Source of the DNA: Limisphaerales bacterium
GTDB taxonomy: Bacteria; Verrucomicrobiota; Verrucomicrobiia; Limisphaerales; JAKEEH01
Length of the DNA: 56,356 bases
Assembly (NCBI GenBank): GCA_022616725.1
Contig: JAKEEH010000463.1
Coordinates: 1-56,356 of the forward strand
Direction of reading: 5' to 3'
Below are positions 2,381 through 55,252 of the stretch, piece after piece. A program made the translations under genes and the position numbers. Below the pieces are notes generated by a model. That model was given only the letters and a program-made list of their open reading frames with translations. It made no database searches and was not told the origin of the DNA. Position 1 is the first letter of the stretch. The number at the start of each line of letters is the position of its first letter.

Positions 2381-4519
2381 GTGAGGGATAACCTTTTGAA
2401 ACTTTTAGGCCGCAGCGATTACGTGCCGGCGAATGTGCCCCAGTTGCTCCGGCTGCTGCGCCTGAGGCCCAACCAGCAGCAGGAACTCCAGCACGTTCTC
2501 CGCGAACTCGAACATGGCGGCACAATCGCCCGCATCAAAGGCAATCGTTACATCCGTCCCCGCGAGGCCGACCTCATTCCGGGACGCATTCGCATCAACC
2601 GCCAGGGAAAAGGAATCCTGCTCCCGGATGACGCCGATCTCAAGGAGATCACCATTCCCGAAAGCGCCACCTCCACTGCTCTGCACGAGGATCACGTGCT
2701 CGTGCGCCGTGACGTTCGGCCCCGCGGCGCGCGCGCGCATGCGCCCGAGGACAACACCGGAAAAGTCATCCGCGTTTTGGCCCGGCGGCGCACCCAAATT
2801 GTCGGCACCCTCCAGCGCAGCCGCCAATTCCTCTACGTTATCCCGGATGACCCTCGCGTTCCGCACGACATTTATGTGCCCGAACCGCGTGACGTGGGCC
2901 GGCCCGCTCACGTTGGTGACAAGGTAGTCGTCGAACTGCGCGACTGGCAGTCGCGCCACACCAGTCCCGAAGGTGAAATCATCGAGGTGCTCGGTGCGCC
3001 CGATGCCGAAGGCGTGGACATGCTGTCGGTCCTGCGCCAATACGACCTGCCGCTCCATTTTCCAAAACCGGCCCTCCATGAAGCCCGTTCCTTTGGCGCT
3101 GCGGTGCGCCCGCACGAACTGGCCGGACGCGAAGATTGCCGGGCTCACCGCGTCATCACTATCGATCCCGACGATGCGAAGGATTTTGATGACGCCATCT
3201 GCCTCCAGCGCGTTTCGCGCGACCAATGGAAACTTTGGGTCCACATCGCGGACGTGTCGCACTACGTCAAGCCGGGCAGACCGCTCGATCTTGAAGCTCG
3301 CAAACGCGGCAACTCCACCTACCTCGTGGACCGCGTCATCCCCATGCTCCCCGAGGCCCTCAGCAACGAACTCTGCTCGCTCAAGCCGGACACCAATCGC
3401 CTCACCAAATGCGTTGAGTTCCTCCTCTCGAACGATGGCCGCGTGCTGGCGCGCCGGTTTTACTCCGCCGTCATCCACTCGCAACGCCGCTTCGCTTACC
3501 CGGAAGTGCTCGCCATTCTCCAGCGCAAACCCTCCGGGCCTATCGAGCAGATGATCCACCACGCCAATGACCTCGCCCAACGCATTCGTCGCCTGCGTTT
3601 CAAGGCCGGTTCTCTCGACCTCGATTTCCCGGAAATGAAAATTCGTCTCGATGAACGCGGCCGCGTCGCCCGGATCGAGAAAGTCGAGAACGACATTTCC
3701 CATCAATTGATCGAGGAATATATGCTCCTGGCCAACGAGGCCGTCGCGACCCGCCTCCTCGCCCTGAATCGTTCTGCGATCTTCCGTGTCCACGAGCCTC
3801 CTGACGAGCGGCGCTTGCAGGAGTTTCGCGAAGACGTATTAAGTCACAATATTCCGTGCGGGAACCTCAGCCGGCGCAGCGAGGTACAGAAGCTTCTCGA
3901 AAAGCTTGGCACGCTGCCCATCGGCCCCGCGCTAAAAATCGGCTTTCTCAAATCCCTCATGCGCGCCCGCTACGCCGTCGAACCGCTCGGCCATTACGGT
4001 TTGGCCAAGGGCAAATACACCCACTTCACGTCGCCCATCCGCCGCTATGCCGATCTCGTCGTCCACCGCGTTTTGTTCGGCCAGGACAAGGCTTTCGGCC
4101 AGCAGCTTCGCGAGACGGCTGATCACATTTCCGATACCGAACGCAATTCCGCGGATGCCGAACGCGACAGCAAAGACGTGAAACTCTTCGCGTTCCTCAA
4201 TGCGCAACTCGCGTCCGGCCGGCCGCAGTCTTATCCCGCGCTTGTCATCGATGTGCGCAATTTCGGTTTCTTCGTCGATGTCCCCGGCCTGGCCATGAGC
4301 GGCCTTGTCCCTTTGTCATCGCTCGTCGATGACTTCTTTGTTTTCGAACCGGCGCGCAACCACCTTGTGGGCCGCCGCACCCGCCGCATCATCCGCCTGG
4401 GCGACCGCGTCGAAGTCCAGGTCGCCAAAGTGGACACGTTCAAAAAACAGGTCGAGTTCCGCCTCACCACCGCGCCCGCTGCAACCCCCAAACGCCGCAA
4501 AGGCCCCTTTTCAAGATGA
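2381..4519 (+). CDS. rnr: Ribonuclease R
   Basis: RNB motifs TIDPDDAKDFDDA, VHIADVSHYV, RGNSTY, LIEEYMLLAN, YTHFTSPIRRYADLVVHR; C-terminal S1 domain and basic tail. Confidence 0.95.
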   Translation: MRDNLLKLLGRSDYVPANVPQLLRLLRLRPNQQQELQHVLRELEHGGTIARIKGNRYIRPREADLIPGRIRINRQGKGILLPDDADLKEITIPESATSTALHEDHVLVRRDVRPRGARAHAPEDNTGKVIRVLARRRTQIVGTLQRSRQFLYVIPDDPRVPHDIYVPEPRDVGRPAHVGDKVVVELRDWQSRHTSPEGEIIEVLGAPDAEGVDMLSVLRQYDLPLHFPKPALHEARSFGAAVRPHELAGREDCRAHRVITIDPDDAKDFDDAICLQRVSRDQWKLWVHIADVSHYVKPGRPLDLEARKRGNSTYLVDRVIPMLPEALSNELCSLKPDTNRLTKCVEFLLSNDGRVLARRFYSAVIHSQRRFAYPEVLAILQRKPSGPIEQMIHHANDLAQRIRRLRFKAGSLDLDFPEMKIRLDERGRVARIEKVENDISHQLIEEYMLLANEAVATRLLALNRSAIFRVHEPPDERRLQEFREDVLSHNIPCGNLSRRSEVQKLLEKLGTLPIGPALKIGFLKSLMRARYAVEPLGHYGLAKGKYTHFTSPIRRYADLVVHRVLFGQDKAFGQQLRETADHISDTERNSADAERDSKDVKLFAFLNAQLASGRPQSYPALVIDVRNFGFFVDVPGLAMSGLVPLSSLVDDFFVFEPARNHLVGRRTRRIIRLGDRVEVQVAKVDTFKKQVEFRLTTAPAATPKRRKGPFSR

Positions 4520-4915: not shown

Positions 4916-5611
4916 CTACAACAACGACGGCCCTTGCTCTACGAACCGTTTGGCTTCTTCCACCGTGTAGGTGGTCTTGCAGTTCGGATTCGGACACAAG
5001 AGGTAATACTCGTAATAAAAGTTGTGCTTCGGCTTCTTGCGCGGCGTCTGCTTGATGACCGGAGTTGAACACTTCCGGCATGGTTCGCCTTCCTGCAAAG
5101 CAGGCCGTACGTCCTCGCTTTCCGGTTTGTTCTCGTAGCCTTCATCCGCCGGAAGATTGGACTGGCGCAACGCAGCCATCGAGAGTTGATCGCAACACTC
5201 ATTTTCCAGATTCCCTGCGTGTCCCCTAACCCAGCGGAATTCCACCTGATGCATTTCGCACAACTGGTCGAGCCTCCGCCAAAGATCAACATTCTCCGGC
5301 CGTTCCGTGTTGGTGCGCCACCAATCCTTCTTCTTCCACGCCACAACCCAGCCTTCCATCATCGCTTTCACCAGATACTGCGAATCGCTGTAAACCGTGA
5401 CCTTGCACGGCTGCTTCAACAATTCCAGCCCAGCAATGGCCGCATAGATTTCCATCCGGTTGTTCGTGGTCTTCCGAAATCCGCCACTGATCTCCGCGCG
5501 TTTCCTGGGATGCAACAACACCACGCCATAACCGCCCGGCCCCGGATTAGGTTCGCATCCGCCATCCGTGTAAATCTCGACGTGTGATATCGACTCCTGG
5601 CTCATGCTCAT
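4916..5611 (-). CDS. rnhA: Ribonuclease HI with C-terminal Zn-ribbon extension
   Basis: YTDGG, TTNNRME, SDSQY, WVRGHAG..ENECCD carry all catalytic acidic residues; extra tail CRKC...CPNPNC. Start could be 5605. Confidence 0.92.
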   Translation of the reverse strand: MSMSQESISHVEIYTDGGCEPNPGPGGYGVVLLHPRKRAEISGGFRKTTNNRMEIYAAIAGLELLKQPCKVTVYSDSQYLVKAMMEGWVVAWKKKDWWRTNTERPENVDLWRRLDQLCEMHQVEFRWVRGHAGNLENECCDQLSMAALRQSNLPADEGYENKPESEDVRPALQEGEPCRKCSTPVIKQTPRKKPKHNFYYEYYLLCPNPNCKTTYTVEEAKRFVEQGPSLL

Positions 5612-5621
5612 TCGTAGTCAG

Positions 5622-6668
5622 TCATTTCGCCGGCCGAAATTCTTTCAGCTTCGAGCAATCAACGAGTCGGTCAAGTGTCTTAAGTGTGAAAACTTTTCCT
5701 CGCGTCGCCAGCAAGAGCTTTTTCATGTCTTCGCGCCGAATTCCAAATCCCCGCCCTGCGATACATGCGATAACCTGAAACTTCGGCTCGTCTCCCTGAA
5801 TGGCGGCCATGCTCAACGCGCCAAGATGCTGGATGCGCGTGACTTTGTCTCGAGCCGTGCCGTCGTCTTCAGTGATTTTGGCTTCAATAACGACCTTCGG
5901 ATTGAACTCGTCTGGTACAATGAAGTCGGGCGCTTGATCAAAGCCGGAAATTCGTTCCGCCCGCCGCGTCTTTCTGAAGCTGATCGTACTTCGCGCTAAG
6001 ATTTCCTCAACAGCCGATTCCATTACATCGCCAACCAACTCACTGACAGAGTCGCGATGGCCAGCAAAAGGGCGTCCGAGAAACCGCTCGTACAGGAGCA
6101 TCGCGTATGGTACGCCCATGCCGGCTAGGTTCCGGACGGCAATCAATCCACCAACGGTGTCAGCCTTCTGAAGCCGATGGATGCTGCCGGCGGGAACAGT
6201 CGGACAGCCCTCTTCGAGCAGTTCGCAGGCGGTTTCGATCATCGCCGCGATCCGCATCTTTACTTCGCCTTGCGGGCGCAAGGGCCTCAGTGGTTCCATT
6301 CGAATGCGTCTGTCCAACGTGCGAGCGAATCCCTGTAGGACGGCCACCTGCTTTCTTTGAGTCGTGACGTACGCCCATTCCGGTGGCGTAAACCCAAGCA
6401 TCGTTCGCAGCACGATGAAACAAATCGGAGTGCTGCTGACGAGTTCGATCAATTTCTGCTTGGGGAGGGAGGCAAAGCCTTCGGTGGTTCTCTTCAAAGC
6501 TTCGTAACCGGCTTCGAAGTCGGGATACTCAACGAAGCCGCCGCCCTTGGGGAGCACAAGAAACTCAGAGGCCAGGCTGGAAAACACCGCATCCACGAAC
6601 TGGTCAGGAGCAGCAAGGATCTCCGCGAAGTCGGCCTCAAAAGGCAACCTCATCAGTTCCCTTTCCAT
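5622..6668 (-). CDS. Putative restriction endonuclease, PD-(D/E)XK fold
   Basis: APDFIVP...VIEAK motif in the C-terminal half; overlaps the 3' end of a DNA methyltransferase gene. Confidence 0.72.
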   Translation of the reverse strand: MERELMRLPFEADFAEILAAPDQFVDAVFSSLASEFLVLPKGGGFVEYPDFEAGYEALKRTTEGFASLPKQKLIELVSSTPICFIVLRTMLGFTPPEWAYVTTQRKQVAVLQGFARTLDRRIRMEPLRPLRPQGEVKMRIAAMIETACELLEEGCPTVPAGSIHRLQKADTVGGLIAVRNLAGMGVPYAMLLYERFLGRPFAGHRDSVSELVGDVMESAVEEILARSTISFRKTRRAERISGFDQAPDFIVPDEFNPKVVIEAKITEDDGTARDKVTRIQHLGALSMAAIQGDEPKFQVIACIAGRGFGIRREDMKKLLLATRGKVFTLKTLDRLVDCSKLKEFRPAK

Positions 6669-8841
6669 ATTTGACGGCAGATTCGGAGAGTTCCCAACAC
6701 TGGTTCCGACTGGCCCGCGTGAACTTCTCGCCGAGTTCGTTCAACACTGCTGCCGGACCGCCGAACTTCTCGATCCATGACATCACCAGCTTTAGGCGTT
6801 CAGAGATACAGTGTTTGACGCTCCATTTAGCTTTCAAGTTCCATACGGCAAGCCGCACGAGATGCCCATAGGTGATGCAACGCAGATCCCCTTGTGTAGG
6901 TCCTAGACCAGCTTCAACGAGTTTGCTGGCGTCATCGTGGATCAGATCTGCCAATTCTTTAGCATTCATCGCCAACCAGCGACGAGGAAATCGGCCAGTC
7001 GCGCGGCACACGAACACGGTGTCCACGATGGATGAAGTGGTGCCATTGATGTGAATGGAAGCCCCCATTTCGGCGGGGCACGGAAGGGATGCCGAGCAGA
7101 CCAGGGAAGCATCAAGAATGGCAACGGCTACCGGTACGTAAGCTTCCATATTATTGTGGTGAAATGTGAACACGAACGGCCCACCGCGCTTGAGAACGGT
7201 AGCTGCCCGCTTGAAAGCGTCGGAGAGGCCCTCCGCAAAATGTTCAAGGTCTCGCCCCATGCTGATGTTTCCAGTGAGTTCGTTGATGTGGCGTGTTGAC
7301 CCCTTTGTGAACTCGGGGTGAGATTGGCCGACCAATCCACGAAGCCACACGTAACAGAAATCCATTAGCTCAGCGTACTGGACGTTTCCAAAATAGGGCG
7401 GGTCGGTCAGGACAGCGTCAAACGAATCGCCGTTGAACCGTGCTTTGGCAGCATCCTCACACCGGAGACGAACTTCTCGAACGGCTGCTTCTGAGTTGCC
7501 ATTGCGATGTTCGCCGATCCATTCACTCTCGATTGGGATCTCTTTCTTTCGATGGCCCGTTTGTTGAACCTCAAAAGGATGCTCACAGTACCGTTTCGCT
7601 TTGGCGAATTTCCCAACGATGTTCAGCCAACCGCCGCTGCCGATGGGGCCGGACTTCCGAGGACTCGAAACGCCGAGAAGATTAGATTCGCATTGGATAA
7701 GGCTAACCGGAAAGCCGTGGACCGAGAAGATGTCCATCGACTTGAGAGCCATCGTGTCATATCGGCAGTGCATGTTTTGGTAGCGCAGCAGGTCGGAGAG
7801 ATTGGTCGCCAGCGCTTCCTGAAGAGATCTGTCACGAACGATCCGAATCGCGCGGCAGCTCAATTCCAACCCAAGGAGCTGTCGGGCATTGAACAGTTCG
7901 CGGTAGTAATGATAGCCCCAGCGGTGTAATCGCTCAGTCTCATCACCAGCGGGGATTTCTTCGTCAGGCACGTGTCGAATCTTCGCTTTTGCGAGTCGTC
8001 TCTCGGCTTGATGATATTTTTCGATGTCGTCCGCGTCCGGTTTCTTGAAAAGCCGCCCAGGTGTTTTCGAGAAACACTCCTCGCAATAATACTCAATGGC
8101 GAAAAGCCGGTGCCGAGGCGCAATGCCTGATGGATAGCTGTTCGACACGCCGCAGTGGCAGCACTTAACCCGGTTGTGCCGTGCCGTGAACTCCGTGCTG
8201 AACTCACCTCCGCAGTGTGAGCATGACTTGGGCTGCTTTCGCGATTTGCTGTCGTAGAGTTCTCCACATTTTCGGCACACGAACACATTCGTTGGATGGC
8301 GCACGTCCTCGGAAAGCATGTAATTCGGAAACAAATCAATCCGTTGCTCACATCTGGTGCACTGCACTGTCTTTACCCAAAGGAAGTATTTCACCTTCGC
8401 GTCGCTCGAGTGACAGAGCTTGCACTGAGTTCGGTACAAATCGCCCACTTCCTGTTCCAGTTCGTCGCGCAGCCGATTTGCTGCGCCCACGTAAGCCGCA
8501 ACGTCCAATGCACCGAGTTCCTGCCGAACGATCCACCATGACATCGGGTTAACATCAAGTCCGGTCACACCGCAGCCGGTCCGATTTGCCTCAATCAATG
8601 TCGTCCCACCACCCATAAATGGGTCGAGGACCCGGATTTGTGGAAACGAGTGCCCCTGGTAAAATGTCTGCCGCAGTGGCTCATGGGTGAACTCGGAAAG
8701 AAGCACGGCCCGAAACAGTGTTCCCGGCCGGCGAGCGAACCACTTATGAACGGCGATCACAGGCCGGTAATTCTGTTGGATTTGCTTTTCACGGAGGGCG
8801 AGCTCAGCAACAAACGGTACATCGAAATCGCGTTCAATCAT
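6637..8841 (-). CDS. Amino (m6A/m4C) DNA methyltransferase with multiple Zn ribbons (DUF1156/COG1743-like)
   Basis: HKWFARR; motif I DPFMGGGTT; motif IV TDPPY about 400 aa later (alpha-type order); six CxxC pairs between them. Confidence 0.88.
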   Translation of the reverse strand: MIERDFDVPFVAELALREKQIQQNYRPVIAVHKWFARRPGTLFRAVLLSEFTHEPLRQTFYQGHSFPQIRVLDPFMGGGTTLIEANRTGCGVTGLDVNPMSWWIVRQELGALDVAAYVGAANRLRDELEQEVGDLYRTQCKLCHSSDAKVKYFLWVKTVQCTRCEQRIDLFPNYMLSEDVRHPTNVFVCRKCGELYDSKSRKQPKSCSHCGGEFSTEFTARHNRVKCCHCGVSNSYPSGIAPRHRLFAIEYYCEECFSKTPGRLFKKPDADDIEKYHQAERRLAKAKIRHVPDEEIPAGDETERLHRWGYHYYRELFNARQLLGLELSCRAIRIVRDRSLQEALATNLSDLLRYQNMHCRYDTMALKSMDIFSVHGFPVSLIQCESNLLGVSSPRKSGPIGSGGWLNIVGKFAKAKRYCEHPFEVQQTGHRKKEIPIESEWIGEHRNGNSEAAVREVRLRCEDAAKARFNGDSFDAVLTDPPYFGNVQYAELMDFCYVWLRGLVGQSHPEFTKGSTRHINELTGNISMGRDLEHFAEGLSDAFKRAATVLKRGGPFVFTFHHNNMEAYVPVAVAILDASLVCSASLPCPAEMGASIHINGTTSSIVDTVFVCRATGRFPRRWLAMNAKELADLIHDDASKLVEAGLGPTQGDLRCITYGHLVRLAVWNLKAKWSVKHCISERLKLVMSWIEKFGGPAAVLNELGEKFTRASRNQCWELSESAVKYGKGTDEVAF

Positions 8842-9054
8842 TCCTGCGTCACCTTAAGGCGTCAATAGAGGCCCGGGCAAGCTAAGTCGTTTGAGTGCAG
8901 TGCAAAGTGCACCCGGCGAATGAGTCTTTCTCTAAGAATGCGACAGCGCAAACAGCGATAGAAAATTTCAGGCAATGAAATTCCATTTTGCGAAATGCCC
9001 ACACCGAGCCGCAGAAGCAAACATCTGAAAGGGTTTTGAATTTGCGCGGATCAG

Positions 9055-9423
9055 TCACAGATGGCGAGCGCGATTGATGATTTCGAGCAGCTTTTCCAAA
9101 TCGTCGCGCGAGGGTTTTTGGCCGGAGAGAGTGCGAAAAAACACGGGAAGCTGGGTGACGAGTTTCTGATCCTTCAGCACGTAATCCGGGATGCGCCCGG
9201 CGTCGACGGCGGCGTAATCGAAGAATTTGAGCCAGTCCTCGGAGCCCTGCTTAAGGCCAAGTTGCTTCGCCCAGGTGCGCAGCGTCTCCTCGTCGCGCGG
9301 CGGCGCGAGCACCCCGCGTTCGATCTTGCTCCAGTTGCTGGGGTCGTGGCCGTGTTTCTGGCAGAATTCACGCAGGCCAAGCCGTTGTCGCGCCCGCAGT
9401 TCTTTGACGAAGGTTCCAAACAT
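9055..9423 (-). CDS. XRE-family helix-turn-helix regulator
   Basis: MFGTFVKELRARQRLGLREFC...DPSNWSKIERG HTH pattern; ATG at 9423 preferred over the longer ORF start. Confidence 0.85.
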   Translation of the reverse strand: MFGTFVKELRARQRLGLREFCQKHGHDPSNWSKIERGVLAPPRDEETLRTWAKQLGLKQGSEDWLKFFDYAAVDAGRIPDYVLKDQKLVTQLPVFFRTLSGQKPSRDDLEKLLEIINRARHL

Positions 9424-9533
9424 ATCGTTTATGATTGTGGTAATAGAAATACCACATGCGGTAACGCTGTCTACAGGAATCGACATTGCCCCAATCAAAC
9501 TCTCACAACTGGATGCAGTAGGTCGAGATGTAT

Positions 9534-9557: not shown

Positions 9558-9586
9558 TTGACTTACGCGACATGACGTGCGATACT
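9558..9586 (+). promoter_or_regulatory. Sigma70 promoter for the DUF2975 operon
   Basis: TTGACT-N17-GATACT, ending 6 nt before the ATG at 9593. Confidence 0.65.
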
Positions 9587-9592
9587 GCCGCC

Positions 9593-10102
9593 ATGAAAGA
9601 TGAATCTGCACGGCGGTTGAGGAGAATTCAGGTTGTAGCGAAAAGCTTTAGATTCCTGTGTTTGCTCGGCATGGTCGTGCTCCTGGGGGCGCTGATCATG
9701 ACCATTTTCAAGCCGGATGAAATCGGACTCACATTCGGTGACTTCAGGATGGAAAAATTCAAGCCTGAATATGCCTGGCTCAAGCGCCCGCTCATTGTTG
9801 TTCTGCTGACAATTCCCGCCACGTTTGTCTGGCTGTTGTATCGCTTGTTCGGCCTTTACAGCCGGGGAGTGATGTTCGGCGAGGCCAACGTGCGTTACAT
9901 CAAATGGCTCGGCTACTGGATGATTGGCGCGTGGGTGATTTCCATGCCGATCCAGTTGCTGCAGTACCTCCAGAACACCAATGCGATGAATTTCATATTT
10001 ACTCTGGACGGTTATTTCGTTGGCGGGGTGCTGGTACTCCTGCTGGCGTGGATCATGGACGAAGGCAGGAAGTTGCAGGAAGAGCAGAGCCTGACCGTGT
10101 GA
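9593..10102 (+). CDS. DUF2975 family membrane protein
   Basis: Four TM segments; GVMFGEANVRYIKWLG and AWIMDEGRKLQEEQSLTV C-terminus; adjacent to an XRE gene. Start chosen from promoter geometry (ORF track starts at 9572). Confidence 0.85.
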   Translation: MKDESARRLRRIQVVAKSFRFLCLLGMVVLLGALIMTIFKPDEIGLTFGDFRMEKFKPEYAWLKRPLIVVLLTIPATFVWLLYRLFGLYSRGVMFGEANVRYIKWLGYWMIGAWVISMPIQLLQYLQNTNAMNFIFTLDGYFVGGVLVLLLAWIMDEGRKLQEEQSLTV

Positions 10103-10449: not shown

Positions 10450-10560
10450 GCGGCCCGAGCAGTGCCATCGGAAGCTCTGGTTATTGATTCAGTCTTTAAG
10501 AAGCTTACTTCACGAGTCCACTTTCAATTTTCAAGTGGCTGCCCCATCTTCAAGTTGGAA

Positions 10561-12459
10561 ATGTCGGCCATAGTCACCGCTACTGATGTCGTCGTGCGAT
10601 ATAACGAGCAGGTCGTGCTCAACGGCGCCACGCTCGGCATCGAGGAAAAGGATCGTATCGGGCTGGTCGGACGCAACGGTTCCGGCAAAACGACGTTTCT
10701 CAGGGTGCTCGCCGGCCTGCAAACGCCGGACAGCGGCGCTGTGACAAAGCGCCGTGACCTCGTGGTCAGTTATCTCTCCCAGGATTTCACGCTCGACTCC
10801 GACAAGAGTGTTCGGGAGAACGTGCGCGCGGGCGCGCGGCACGTGCTCGATTGCATCGCCGAGTTCGAAGGGTTGCCCGCCGAATCGCGGCGCCACGCCG
10901 AACTCGAGGAACGAATCGTGGCTCTCGATGGCTGGTCGGTCGAGCGCCGCATCGAGACGACTCTGTCGCATTTGAATTGCCCCGACGGCGAGCGTGGCAT
11001 CGATTCTCTTTCCGGCGGGGAGAAGCGGCGCGTCGCCATGGCGCGCGCGATCGTGTCGCAGCCCGAGTTTCTTATCCTCGACGAGCCGACCAACCATCTC
11101 GACCCTGAATCGATCGATTGGGTGGCGGACTTCCTTGAAAATTTTCGCGGCGCATTTCTGGTGGTCACGCACGACCGTTACTTTCTCGATCGTGTGGTGC
11201 GCCGCATGGTCGAGCTGGCCGAGGGACGGTTCTTCGCGCACGACGGCAATTACACGGATTACCTGCTCGACAAGGCGGAGCGCCAGGCCGCCGACGCGGT
11301 CGTGGAGCACAAACGGCAGATGTTCCTCCGCCGGGAGTTAGAGTGGGTGCGGCGCGGGCCGCCCGCGCAGCGCACGAAGTCCAAAGTGCGTTTCGAAAAG
11401 TTTTACGAAGTGGAAAGCCAGGCTGCGCCGACAGTGGAAGAGGAAGTCGAGCTTTGCGTGCCGCCGCCACCCCCGCTTGGCAATCGCGTTGTGGAGTGCA
11501 GCAATCTCGGGGTCGCCGTGGGCGGATGCAGGTTATTCGGCGGTTTCAATTTCACGTTCGAGAACGGCCAACGCGTGGGCGTGGCTGGGCGCAATGGCCT
11601 TGGCAAGACGACGCTGCTCAAGACGATCATTGGCGACGTCGCACCGACCGAAGGCACGGTCAAAGTCGGCCAGCTCACCAGGTTCAACTACGTCGATCAG
11701 GACCGCTTGCGGTTACGCGAGGAACGCACGGCGCTTGAGGAAGTGAGCGACGGGGCCGAGTGGGTCATGTGGGGCCAGGCACGGCTCTCGGTGCGCGCAT
11801 ACTTGAAACGCTTCCTTTTCGCGGATGATCGTATCGGCCGCCTGGTGAAGCACCTCTCCGGCGGGGAACGCAGCCGGCTGCTGCTAGCGCGCATTTTGAA
11901 ACAGGGCGGCAACTTCCTGATCCTCGACGAGCCGACGAATGACCTCGATCTGCCGACGCTGCGCGTGCTGGAGGAAGCGCTGATTGCTTTCCCGGGTGTG
12001 GTCCTGGTCGTCAGCCACGACCGCTATTTCCTTAACCGCGTGTGCACGGATATCCTGGCTTTTGAAGGGGACGAGCGCATCACGCACAGCGCGGGTGATT
12101 ACGACTATTATCTTGAGAAGCGCGCCCGCCGTTCGCAACCGGGAACGGACAAGCCGGAAGCCGCGACGCGCAAGCCGGAATCCCCAACCAGGCTGCAACG
12201 AATTCTCCGGCCCCGCAAGATCACCTGGAAGGAAATCAAAGAACTCGAAGGCATGGAGGCGCGTATCCTGAACGTCGAAAGCGGGATTGCGCGCATCGAG
12301 GACCTTTTTGCCTCGCCCGATTTCCATCGCACGCACGCGCTCCAAACCAACGCGCTCAACGCCGAACTCGCCGCCGCCAAATCAAATCTGGCGGAACTTT
12401 ACGCCCGCTGGGAGGAACTGGAATCTCTCCGCCTCGCGTCCGAATCCAAGCCAAGGTGA
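10561..12459 (+). CDS. uup: ABC-F family ATPase (Uup-like)
   Basis: Two NBDs (GRNGSGKT, GRNGLGKT, LSGGE, LDEPTN), no TM segments, C-terminal coiled domain ending LYARWEELE. Confidence 0.85.
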   Translation: MSAIVTATDVVVRYNEQVVLNGATLGIEEKDRIGLVGRNGSGKTTFLRVLAGLQTPDSGAVTKRRDLVVSYLSQDFTLDSDKSVRENVRAGARHVLDCIAEFEGLPAESRRHAELEERIVALDGWSVERRIETTLSHLNCPDGERGIDSLSGGEKRRVAMARAIVSQPEFLILDEPTNHLDPESIDWVADFLENFRGAFLVVTHDRYFLDRVVRRMVELAEGRFFAHDGNYTDYLLDKAERQAADAVVEHKRQMFLRRELEWVRRGPPAQRTKSKVRFEKFYEVESQAAPTVEEEVELCVPPPPPLGNRVVECSNLGVAVGGCRLFGGFNFTFENGQRVGVAGRNGLGKTTLLKTIIGDVAPTEGTVKVGQLTRFNYVDQDRLRLREERTALEEVSDGAEWVMWGQARLSVRAYLKRFLFADDRIGRLVKHLSGGERSRLLLARILKQGGNFLILDEPTNDLDLPTLRVLEEALIAFPGVVLVVSHDRYFLNRVCTDILAFEGDERITHSAGDYDYYLEKRARRSQPGTDKPEAATRKPESPTRLQRILRPRKITWKEIKELEGMEARILNVESGIARIEDLFASPDFHRTHALQTNALNAELAAAKSNLAELYARWEELESLRLASESKPR

Positions 12460-54265: not shown

Positions 54266-55252
54266 ATGAACAGAATAACCAAAATAACCGATAAACTACT
54301 AAACAGATTAAAACTGGGTGCTGCCCTCGGCCTGGCCTTTGGGGTTGTGCTCGCAGGATCGCTCGCTGCTGAGGCGAAATCCACCCCCTTTAGTCGGATA
54401 ACTGTGTTCGGCGACAGCTTGTCAGATATAGGGAATCTTCACCGGCTGACCGAGGGCTTTCCCCCACCTCCGTATGTCGAGGGACGCTTTTCGAACGGGG
54501 AGCTGTGGATCGAGTACCTGGCCGAAGATCTTGGCATGGACTTATTGCCGGAAGATAATTACGCGGTCGGCGGCGCGACGACAGGCTCGGTCAACGTGAA
54601 TGGGCCTGTCTTTGGCTTGAACCTCCCAGGTTTGCAGGATCAAATCGCGGCATTCCTTGCAGCGAGACAACCCAGCGGGGCAGATCCTGAGGCGCTCTAT
54701 GTCATCTGGGCCGGAGCAAATGACTTCTTTCTCGCGTTAGAAGGGGGGGTGGATCCCGCGACAATGATTGCGGGCGGCGTTTCGAATACCGTTCGGGCTG
54801 TGCACCTTCTCTGGAGCGCCGGCGCCGCGCACATCATGGTTGTGAATGTACCGGACCTGGGGCTGACACCGTCCGGCCTTGCCTCGGGCAGGAGCGCGGC
54901 CATTACTCAACTAGCTGCGGCTTACAACCACCTGCTCGGCACCGCTCTGCAGAACCTGGCCCATGCCGATGTCCAAACGATCTTTGTCGATGCTTTCGCG
55001 ACGCTTCAAGCGATGGTGACTTCGCCCGCAGATTTTGATTTCACAAATGTCACGACTTCGTTCCTCTCTACAGGCGGCGATCCATCTGAATTCCTGTTTT
55101 GGGACATGGTTCATCCCACCACTCGCGGTCACCAGGTGTTTGGACGTGAGGCGTTGGATCGCCTTGTTGACCACTTCTCCCCAAGTCAAGGAAAGGCGGC
55201 GCCACGACCTCAAGCCAATTCGCTCCGCGGCCTGGTGCATGCTCGACCGTAA
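54266..55252 (+). CDS. Secreted SGNH/GDSL hydrolase
   Basis: Signal peptide; FGDSLSD, GRFSNG, YAVGGA, WAGAND, FWDMVHPT. Confidence 0.92.
   Translation: MNRITKITDKLLNRLKLGAALGLAFGVVLAGSLAAEAKSTPFSRITVFGDSLSDIGNLHRLTEGFPPPPYVEGRFSNGELWIEYLAEDLGMDLLPEDNYAVGGATTGSVNVNGPVFGLNLPGLQDQIAAFLAARQPSGADPEALYVIWAGANDFFLALEGGVDPATMIAGGVSNTVRAVHLLWSAGAAHIMVVNVPDLGLTPSGLASGRSAAITQLAAAYNHLLGTALQNLAHADVQTIFVDAFATLQAMVTSPADFDFTNVTTSFLSTGGDPSEFLFWDMVHPTTRGHQVFGREALDRLVDHFSPSQGKAAPRPQANSLRGLVHARP

Follow-up and report, generated by a model that had tools for sequence, protein, structure and literature searches.

The question raised by contig JAKEEH010000463.1 of a Limisphaerales bacterium is whether four adjacent genes form one system. 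Its minus strand carries four co-oriented genes, in the order XRE regulator, Zn-ribbon DNA methyltransferase, PD-(D/E)XK nuclease and RNase HI (rnhA); positions given here are those of the window, meaning the whole stretch of 56,356 nucleotides (nt) and not the four-gene locus (Table 1). A sequence-only reading had taken the four for a single defence cassette, a restriction-modification (R-M)-like system with a subunit that processes RNA:DNA hybrids. All four open reading frames (ORFs) and their domain labels were borne out, as was the compact layout: the methyltransferase and nuclease ORFs overlap by 32 nt (6637-6668), or by 17 nt if the nuclease starts at Met6, the start position of most of its homologues (alignment A1) and of its Atlas record, and rnhA begins 10 nt past the nuclease stop (gap 5612-5621), or 16 nt past it if the Met3 start of the Atlas record is used. 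Even so, their adjacency looks like chance, and the four do not appear to make up one new defence system. We consider it probable, with good confidence, that a mobile, self-contained Type II-like R-M pair, consisting of the methyltransferase and the nuclease, was inserted just upstream of a native rnhA, so that two native genes now flank it.

Gene content of related loci

One genome per species was scanned, giving 543 confirmed nuclease loci, of which the best 80 were analysed with up to 8 kilobases (kb) on each side. Searched by tblastn with the window proteins (E ≤ 1e-5, rechecked at E ≤ 10), all 80 have the nuclease, and 79 have a methyltransferase match directly upstream of it (L035 has only 79 nt of contig upstream; in L022 the match is partial). 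RNase HI, the XRE regulator and the nearby RNase R and DUF2975 genes are matched in none of the 80, and for RNase H nothing credible appeared even at E ≤ 10 (best E = 1.5). Downstream of the nuclease, the sequence extends for at least 800 nt in 73 of the 80 loci and for at least 2 kb in 63; upstream of the methyltransferase, at least 600 nt are present in 64 of the 79 loci that have a methyltransferase match. A Pfam scan of 140 immediate neighbours likewise found no RNase_H and no XRE-type helix-turn-helix (HTH) domain at E ≤ 1e-5.

No other gene takes their place. When the 267 nearest ORFs (two on each side of the pair) were clustered, 250 clusters resulted, of which the largest spanned 3 loci. 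With no flanking cluster in more than 3 of the 80 loci, the pair has no conserved third gene, and no ATPase, helicase or specificity subunit is kept with it.

These counts bear directly on the cassette. As proposed, its RNase HI with the Zn ribbon would be a subunit that removes R-loops or primers so that the nuclease can cut invader DNA, with the XRE protein as regulator. The shared orientation, the 10-nt gap between nuclease and rnhA, the lack of a recognisable separate promoter there and the extra Zn-ribbon domain on the RNase HI are what one might expect of such a system. The sequence-only reading had suggested counting RNase H genes beside homologues of the nuclease and methyltransferase, and had named, among the conditions that would refute the idea, that homologous pairs never neighbour one. 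The count is 0 of 80, for RNase H and for XRE alike, and the cassette is already largely refuted by it; there is no conserved third gene; the Zn-ribbon tail occurs throughout the lineage, in RNase HI proteins 71-86% identical to this one, while the closest relative of the nuclease is only 74% identical; the base composition of rnhA and the XRE gene is host-like (see below); and in up to 12 of 74 loci genes of other, unrelated kinds follow the nuclease just as closely. Taken together these make a four-gene cassette extremely improbable. What survives of the proposal is the R-M-like character of the methyltransferase-nuclease pair; the membership of RNase H does not, and that of the XRE regulator also fails, given its absence from the 80 loci and the 140 neighbours. 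Classical Type II systems are not known to include an RNase H. In the portions available to us of the literature on RNase H with restriction-modification and on R-loops, no such defence system was found. Restriction aided by an RNA:DNA-hybrid nuclease, as a new class of defence, is unsupported and should not be carried forward.

The short distance to rnhA deserves separate comment. Downstream sequence of at least 400 nt is available in 74 loci. In 12 of these, the nuclease stop is followed within 40 nt by the start of a co-oriented ORF of 100 amino acids (aa) or more, and in 8 within 20 nt (two of the 12, in L074 and L075, may be shadow ORFs). The families concerned are unrelated, so tight spacing is not special to rnhA. 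In three Nitrospirota loci (L020, L021 and L027) a tRNA-Thr_ED-type gene begins about 20 nt past the nuclease stop, and in a fourth (L016) it overlaps the nuclease by 4 nt. This is a second case in which the module abuts a housekeeping gene, and it suggests that the placement is incidental. The locus would then exemplify gene spacing that is tight by reason of the insertion site, and not of shared function.

A more modest link between the pair and rnhA is local co-option, in which a mobile R-M pair put rnhA into the same transcript and the RNase HI came to aid or buffer the module, for example by limiting R-loop-linked damage at cut sites. A spacing of 10-16 nt makes co-transcription likely, and the 3′ boundary of the pair appears to be its own stop codon, because the nuclease C-terminus aligns to its end with those of its homologues. 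The arrangement is a one-off, so that no comparative support is possible, and elsewhere the pair has been inserted directly before unrelated housekeeping genes, as in the four Nitrospirota loci. We therefore regard co-option as distinctly unlikely.

A probably mobile pair between apparently native genes

The methyltransferase and nuclease are adjacent, separate genes that are inherited together, as the Type II criterion asks. In all 76 loci evaluated, the methyltransferase stop keeps the same distance, 17 nt, beyond the codon that aligns with nuclease Met6, and the identities of the two proteins to their counterparts in the window are correlated (r = 0.76, n = 72). In a quick maximum-likelihood tree of 81 nucleases, the window's own belongs to a 20-row clade that is mainly Verrucomicrobiota (SH-aLRT 95); over the whole tree, 17 phylum labels require 32 label changes against a minimum of 16. 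The two genes thus appear to have stayed together through inheritance and transfer, across many bacterial phyla.

The flanking genes have a different character. The background for comparison was the 33 other ORFs of the window that reach 200 aa, whose G+C content at third codon positions (GC3) has a mean of 0.700 and a standard deviation of 0.038. Relative to these, rnhA, the XRE gene and the DUF2975 gene lie close to the mean, and the nuclease and methyltransferase well below it (Table 1). The best non-self identities run in the same order: 95% for the XRE protein and 86% for RNase HI, 74% for the nuclease and 65% for the methyltransferase, in each case among the listed matches (for the methyltransferase, among the best 80 loci only, no separate search having been made with it). 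Both measures mark the flanking genes as apparently native and the pair as apparently foreign.

Table 1. Features of the locus and its surroundings. Positions refer to the window; matches in related loci are by tblastn at E ≤ 1e-5; z is relative to the 33 background ORFs.
Feature	Position	Strand	Length and remarks	Loci with a match	GC3	z
XRE-family HTH regulator	9055..9423	-	122 aa from ATG at 9423; longest ORF 9498..9055, from TTG	0/80	0.682	-0.48
Upstream strip probably travelling with the pair	8842..8890	-	about 50 nt before the methyltransferase start; approximate boundary			
DNA amino-methyltransferase, predicted M gene of the mobile pair	6637..8841	-	734 aa	79/80, directly upstream of the nuclease	0.601	-2.62 (lowest of 34: the 33 and itself)
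PD-(D/E)XK restriction-endonuclease-like protein, predicted R gene of the mobile pair	5622..6668	-	348 aa	80/80	0.625	-1.99
RNase HI (rnhA), apparently native flanking gene outside the module	4916..5611	-	231 aa	0/80	0.698	-0.06
RNase R	2381-4519	+	Pfam	0/80		
DUF2975 membrane protein	9572-10102	+	Pfam; divergent from the XRE gene	0/80	0.712	+0.31
ABC-F ATPase	10462-12459	+	Pfam			

The RNase HI has every appearance of being the cell's ordinary enzyme, and its gene a native flanking one. It matches Pfam RNase_H at 1.9e-40 and passes the NCBIfam housekeeping equivalog NF001236 (189.3 bits, cut-off 160). Like housekeeping enzymes of the E. coli type it has a full-length core, with aa 9-160 aligning to residues 3-152 of the 155-aa E. 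coli protein at 1.4e-44, and all of the catalytic residues: D16, E54, D76, H131 and D141 are invariant in 21 sequences (the window and 20 relatives 74-84% identical to it). Unlike E. coli RNase HI, it has a conserved C-terminal extension of about 70 aa (aa 161-231; window 4916-5161, minus strand) with a four-Cys Zn ribbon (C178, C181, C206 and C211), all four Cys again being invariant in the 21 aligned sequences. A total of 5490 proteins are related to it at E ≤ 0.001; the 120 relatives listed are 71-86% identical over 95-100% of its length, are 219-277 aa long and, where named, are ribonuclease HI proteins of Verrucomicrobia. Since the tail is kept in the 21 sequences and in relatives 71-86% identical, it is best seen as a lineage feature of RNase HI, unrelated to this locus.

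What the tail does is a separate matter. It might be a handle for binding DNA or a partner, and may bear on recruitment of the enzyme to DNA. Its best Pfam match when searched alone is Phage_zn_bind (2.8e-4, under the cut-off for that family); an Atlas search with it gave no usable match, none of the solved RNase H chains covers it, and a fusion of RNase HI with a zinc ribbon was not found described in those parts of the literature on the two that could be consulted. There is no second copy of rnhA within the 56-kb window.

The XRE regulator (Pfam HTH_31, 9.9e-07) likely starts at the ATG at 9423, because nearly all of the 120 homologues listed are 122 aa long. These are the best of 669 found at E ≤ 0.001; they are 77-95% identical to it, and their sources are mostly Verrucomicrobia. 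A spacer of 213 nt, in which ORFs of at least 20 aa are only spurious-looking, separates it from the methyltransferase gene.

One possible role for this protein is that of a controller (C) protein of the R-M pair. In C-protein-controlled operons, as here, a small HTH gene lies upstream of the R-M genes, and this one is co-oriented with the pair and 213 nt from it. Unlike the HTH gene of such operons, it is not conserved with the pair: it has no homologue in the 80 loci, even though 64 of the 79 methyltransferase-matched ones have at least 600 nt upstream, and an XRE-type HTH is absent from all 140 neighbours at E ≤ 1e-5. Its relatives, up to 95% identical, are far closer than any of the pair's, and its GC3 is host-like. 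A controller function is accordingly very unlikely, and the gene appears to be a native one flanking the module from outside. It is strongly conserved and lies divergent from the DUF2975 gene (9572-10102, plus strand), with which it may form a native regulator-target pair.

There is a weak lead concerning the two flanking genes together. One relative of the XRE protein (P0399) and two of the RNase HI (P0138 and P0231) each come from a contig of 10,816 nt, a length from which no listed nuclease match comes. The coincidence hints at linkage of XRE and rnhA in a relative without a close copy of the pair.

Properties of the methyltransferase and the nuclease

The methyltransferase matches Pfam N6_N4_Mtase (1.1e-07; 32.4 bits, cut-off 26.7) and has both features expected of a Type II methylase, an S-adenosylmethionine-binding motif I and a catalytic (D/N/S)PP(Y/F) motif IV. 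Across 19 sequences there is no variation in motif I (DPFMGGG, aa 73-79), in motif IV (TDPPY, aa 479-483) or in the twelve Cys residues that make up three CxxC...CxxC Zn ribbons (aa 140-256). It also matches a phage DNA methyltransferase family, phrog_10183, at 3.3e-93. A few copies in other loci are damaged. That of L016 (L016:1395-3590) is decayed, with two in-frame stops in a conserved KFxKAKxYC stretch; in L022 the methyltransferase region (L022:5700-8000) is split into small ORFs next to an intact nuclease ORF of 377 aa; and the matches in L051 and L068 are shortened.

The nuclease has no match to Pfam, NCBIfam, PADLOC or PHROG at standard thresholds. Its motif D248...E262-x-K264 is invariant in 20 sequences. 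Weak matches to PD-(D/E)XK families are spread over these 20 members (TPD in 20, EcoRII-C in 11 and PDDEXK_11 in 7), a divergent relative (P0379) matches RE_BanI at 2.6e-4, under the family cut-off, and a language-model Atlas puts the window nuclease close to clusters of DpnII and BanI (scores 0.96 and 0.93), which is a lead only. An AlphaFold2 model built from alignment A1 (mean pLDDT 82.5, pTM 0.54) has an all-helical N-terminal domain (about aa 8-197), in which Pfam and other family scans recognise no DNA-binding family, and an alpha/beta catalytic domain (about aa 204-344) that holds D248, E262 and K264 in an alpha-beta-beta-beta-alpha-beta core. In a Foldseek search of the PDB, the top match of this model is BstEII bound to DNA, and is weak (E 0.016, probability 0.96, TM-scores 0.32/0.37); further weak matches are EcoT38I, Ecl18kI, BsoBI and PspGI. 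The leads from fold, profile and language model all point toward Type II enzymes (BstEII, BanI, EcoRII-C and DpnII), and it is reasonable to call the protein restriction-enzyme-like on the strength of weak similarities and the catalytic motif.

A distant relative backs this reading of the nuclease. On a Microbacterium plasmid, a homologue 31.8% identical to it lies, with a 1-nt overlap, behind a different, classical N6_N4 methylase of 308 aa that is annotated as part of an R-M system. This was the one distant match on plasmids, and the phage collection contained no homologue. One representative of the family (P0308, 633 aa) joins a nuclease-family segment to a GmrSD_C domain (4.5e-25), which could reflect a true fusion or an error in joining gene calls.

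By motifs, gene order and partner genes the pair would thus qualify as Type II R-M, with its activity a prediction. As in such systems, M and R are distinct genes that lie side by side and overlap in a compact operon. The methylase is an amino-methyltransferase in which motif I is joined by a DPPY motif IV, and the nuclease combines a D...ExK motif with, in the model, an alpha/beta core. Neither an ATPase nor a helicase or specificity subunit forms part of the pair, and its distribution across phyla is patchy. The Type II enzymes that the nuclease weakly resembles in fold or profile are BstEII, BanI, the EcoRII C-terminal domain, Ecl18kI and PspGI. It differs from known Type II systems in several respects. 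Its methylase, at 734 aa, has three Zn ribbons between motifs I and IV; the sequences of the pair are unusually conserved; and its nuclease family lacks a Pfam, NCBIfam or PADLOC model and has fold matches at TM-scores of only 0.32-0.37, although it is very large. Of 8000 candidates scored, 5962 are related to the nuclease at E ≤ 0.001, that is, at least 5962 clusters at 90% identity; clustering at 50% identity leaves 1065 representatives at the same threshold. The closest relative is that at 74% identity already mentioned, and the 119 non-self matches listed span 66-74%. This very large, strongly conserved, restriction-enzyme-like family is what remains of interest at the locus, and, lacking a model in these collections, the nuclease partner would be missed by current defence-finding pipelines.

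The methyltransferase also resembles a second kind of system. COG1743/DUF1156 methylases (those of the COG1743-DUF499-SWI2/SNF2 nuclease operon, HmaB of Hma, and BREX-related ones) usually sit with helicase or ATPase partners, as the sequence-only reading had stated and as the available parts of three sources also indicate (PMC7641849; PMC1874659; bioRxiv 10.1101/2025.10.09.681413). The window protein shares with them DUF1156-like N-terminal helices (PF06634, 22.6 bits, under the Pfam cut-off of 24), homology in the core and a Zn-ribbon insert, and has partial PADLOC matches to DUF1156_MTase, HmaB and PglX. Against NCBIfam NF042963, which represents the anti-phage DUF1156 methylases, it scores 107.5 bits (5.5e-31), where the cut-off is 1000, and it is about 230 aa shorter than that family; the relationship seems only a distant one. 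Its conserved partner, moreover, is a small stand-alone nuclease and not a helicase or ATPase. Among the 140 neighbours DUF499 is absent, MZB-domain DEAD-box helicases occur twice, and L077 has a further, related helicase at a distance of 1.3 kb. Membership in the curated anti-phage DUF1156/COG1743 family was considered and rejected, both for the missed score cut-offs and for the missing helicase and ATPase partners. It would appear that a COG1743-like methylase can partner a simple nuclease in place of a helicase; no two-gene methyltransferase-nuclease system of this type was found described in the DUF1156/COG1743 literature, to the extent that it was accessible.

This kinship raises the possibility of an obligate methylase-nuclease complex, a helicase-less offshoot of the COG1743/DUF1156 helicase systems in which the Zn-ribbon methylase recognises the target and the nuclease docks through its N-terminal domain. 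If true, it would explain why both proteins stay 55-74% identical across phyla. The unusual conservation itself (nuclease 63-74%, methyltransferase 54-65% across many phyla), the correlated divergence and invariant overlap of the two genes, the distant relation to anti-phage DUF1156 methylases and the lack of a recognisable DNA-binding family in the nuclease N-terminal domain are all compatible with it. Two observations argue in the other direction: a distant member of the nuclease family pairs with a small classical methylase, which suggests a nuclease that works alone, and the enzymes that the model weakly matches in fold are Type IIP enzymes that act by themselves, in DNA-bound form. An obligate complex seems to us rather unlikely. 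We likewise see as unlikely the fuller form of the idea, a motor-less complex derived from COG1743/DUF1156 systems in which the methylase reads the target (possibly CAGCTG, see below) and RNase HI has come under transcription from the module.

For the Type II-like pair, a conventional mechanism can be proposed; R-M activity, N6-adenine specificity and read-through into rnhA are here inferred. The methyltransferase would modify a short recognition sequence wherever it occurs in host DNA; the DPPY motif points to an exocyclic amino group as the methylation target, most likely N6 of adenine, with N4 of cytosine also possible. The endonuclease would cut the same sequence when unmethylated, as in incoming phage or plasmid DNA, and the conserved M-before-R order and gene overlap may couple expression and translation, so that protection is in place by the time the nuclease is made. 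Here the insertion would have placed the pair about 10 nt from the rnhA start codon and downstream of the conserved XRE gene. To judge from the spacing, rnhA is probably transcribed by read-through from the module; this would be a side effect of the insertion site and not a sign of shared function.

Several points weigh against a mobile Type II-like pair beside unrelated native genes, or at least against parts of that account. The adjacency counts for RNase H and XRE cover the best 80 of the 543 confirmed loci, with 463 outside them. GC3 is a modest signal: an unrelated ORF (54266-55252) is about as low as the methyltransferase. Nuclease identities of 63-74% across many phyla are unusually high for a restriction enzyme. 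In neither the PDB nor a viral library did Foldseek find anything for the nuclease model at E ≤ 0.001, and the nuclease profile found nothing under E 0.19 among the sequences of solved structures. Finally, the gap of 10-16 nt without a recognisable rnhA promoter makes co-expression probable and a local functional link possible.

Probable module ends, a depleted hexamer and neighbouring genes

The 3′ end of the module, as noted above, would be the nuclease stop codon. At the other end, a box cttagcttgcccg lies about 35-45 nt upstream of the methyltransferase start and resembles cttggcttgcccg-type boxes in several of 12 Verrucomicrobial-clade loci. Local alignment of the 13 upstream regions (the window and these 12) placed a cttggcttgcccg-like box at the same position in L002, L004, L009, L010, L015 and L038. 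Four Nitrospirota loci (L016, L020, L021 and L027) have a different conserved stretch at that position, which contains TATAAT. The box of the window is possibly a promoter or operator, and the conserved upstream stretches are likely to be module-borne promoters. These regions weakly suggest that the module ends near 8890 on its 5′ side and brings its own promoter-proximal sequence.

Other signals were sparse. Neither junction has direct or inverted repeats that would mark insertion ends. The window contains no tRNA gene, and hence no tRNA-type integration site, and no Rfam family. A scan for the sigma-70 consensus found no promoter-like site upstream of rnhA, the scan itself being at chance level (3 sites, against 3.3 from shuffled sequences), and a terminator consensus scan of the region was also at chance.

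As to a recognition sequence, no 6-mer in the window is as strongly depleted as CAGCTG, of which 11.5 copies are expected and none is observed. It is also the most depleted in the 81 pooled module-bearing sequences (104 against 269.4 expected, z -10; the comparison was made in pair-bearing sequences only, without pair-lacking controls), and is under-represented in 76 of the 81. In the Nitrospirota and Firmicutes subsets its depletion is weak, and it ranks only 20th to 22nd among palindromes. CAGCTG is a candidate only for the site recognised by the pair, a lead to follow; what was available of the literature on CAGCTG and methylomes did not link it to this methyltransferase-nuclease family.

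The flanks of the locus are ordinary chromosomal genes, the remainder of the window including rpoN, gpsA-, aroE- and prepilin-peptidase-type genes, ABC transporters and others. Elsewhere the company of the pair is mixed. Housekeeping neighbours include inositol monophosphatase, tRNA-Thr_ED, citrate synthase, ribosome recycling factor, TsaD, MnmA-type and glycogen enzymes; those related to defence or mobility include GmrSD (4 loci), TIR, Shedu SduA_C, AbiJ, further N6_N4 methylases, toxin-antitoxin parts and an rve integrase. The pair lies beside other defence genes in L006, L014, L052, L080, L053, L073, L026, L048 and L050. In L048 it has paralogous N6_N4 methylases of 323 aa on both sides, and a related one is found in L050.

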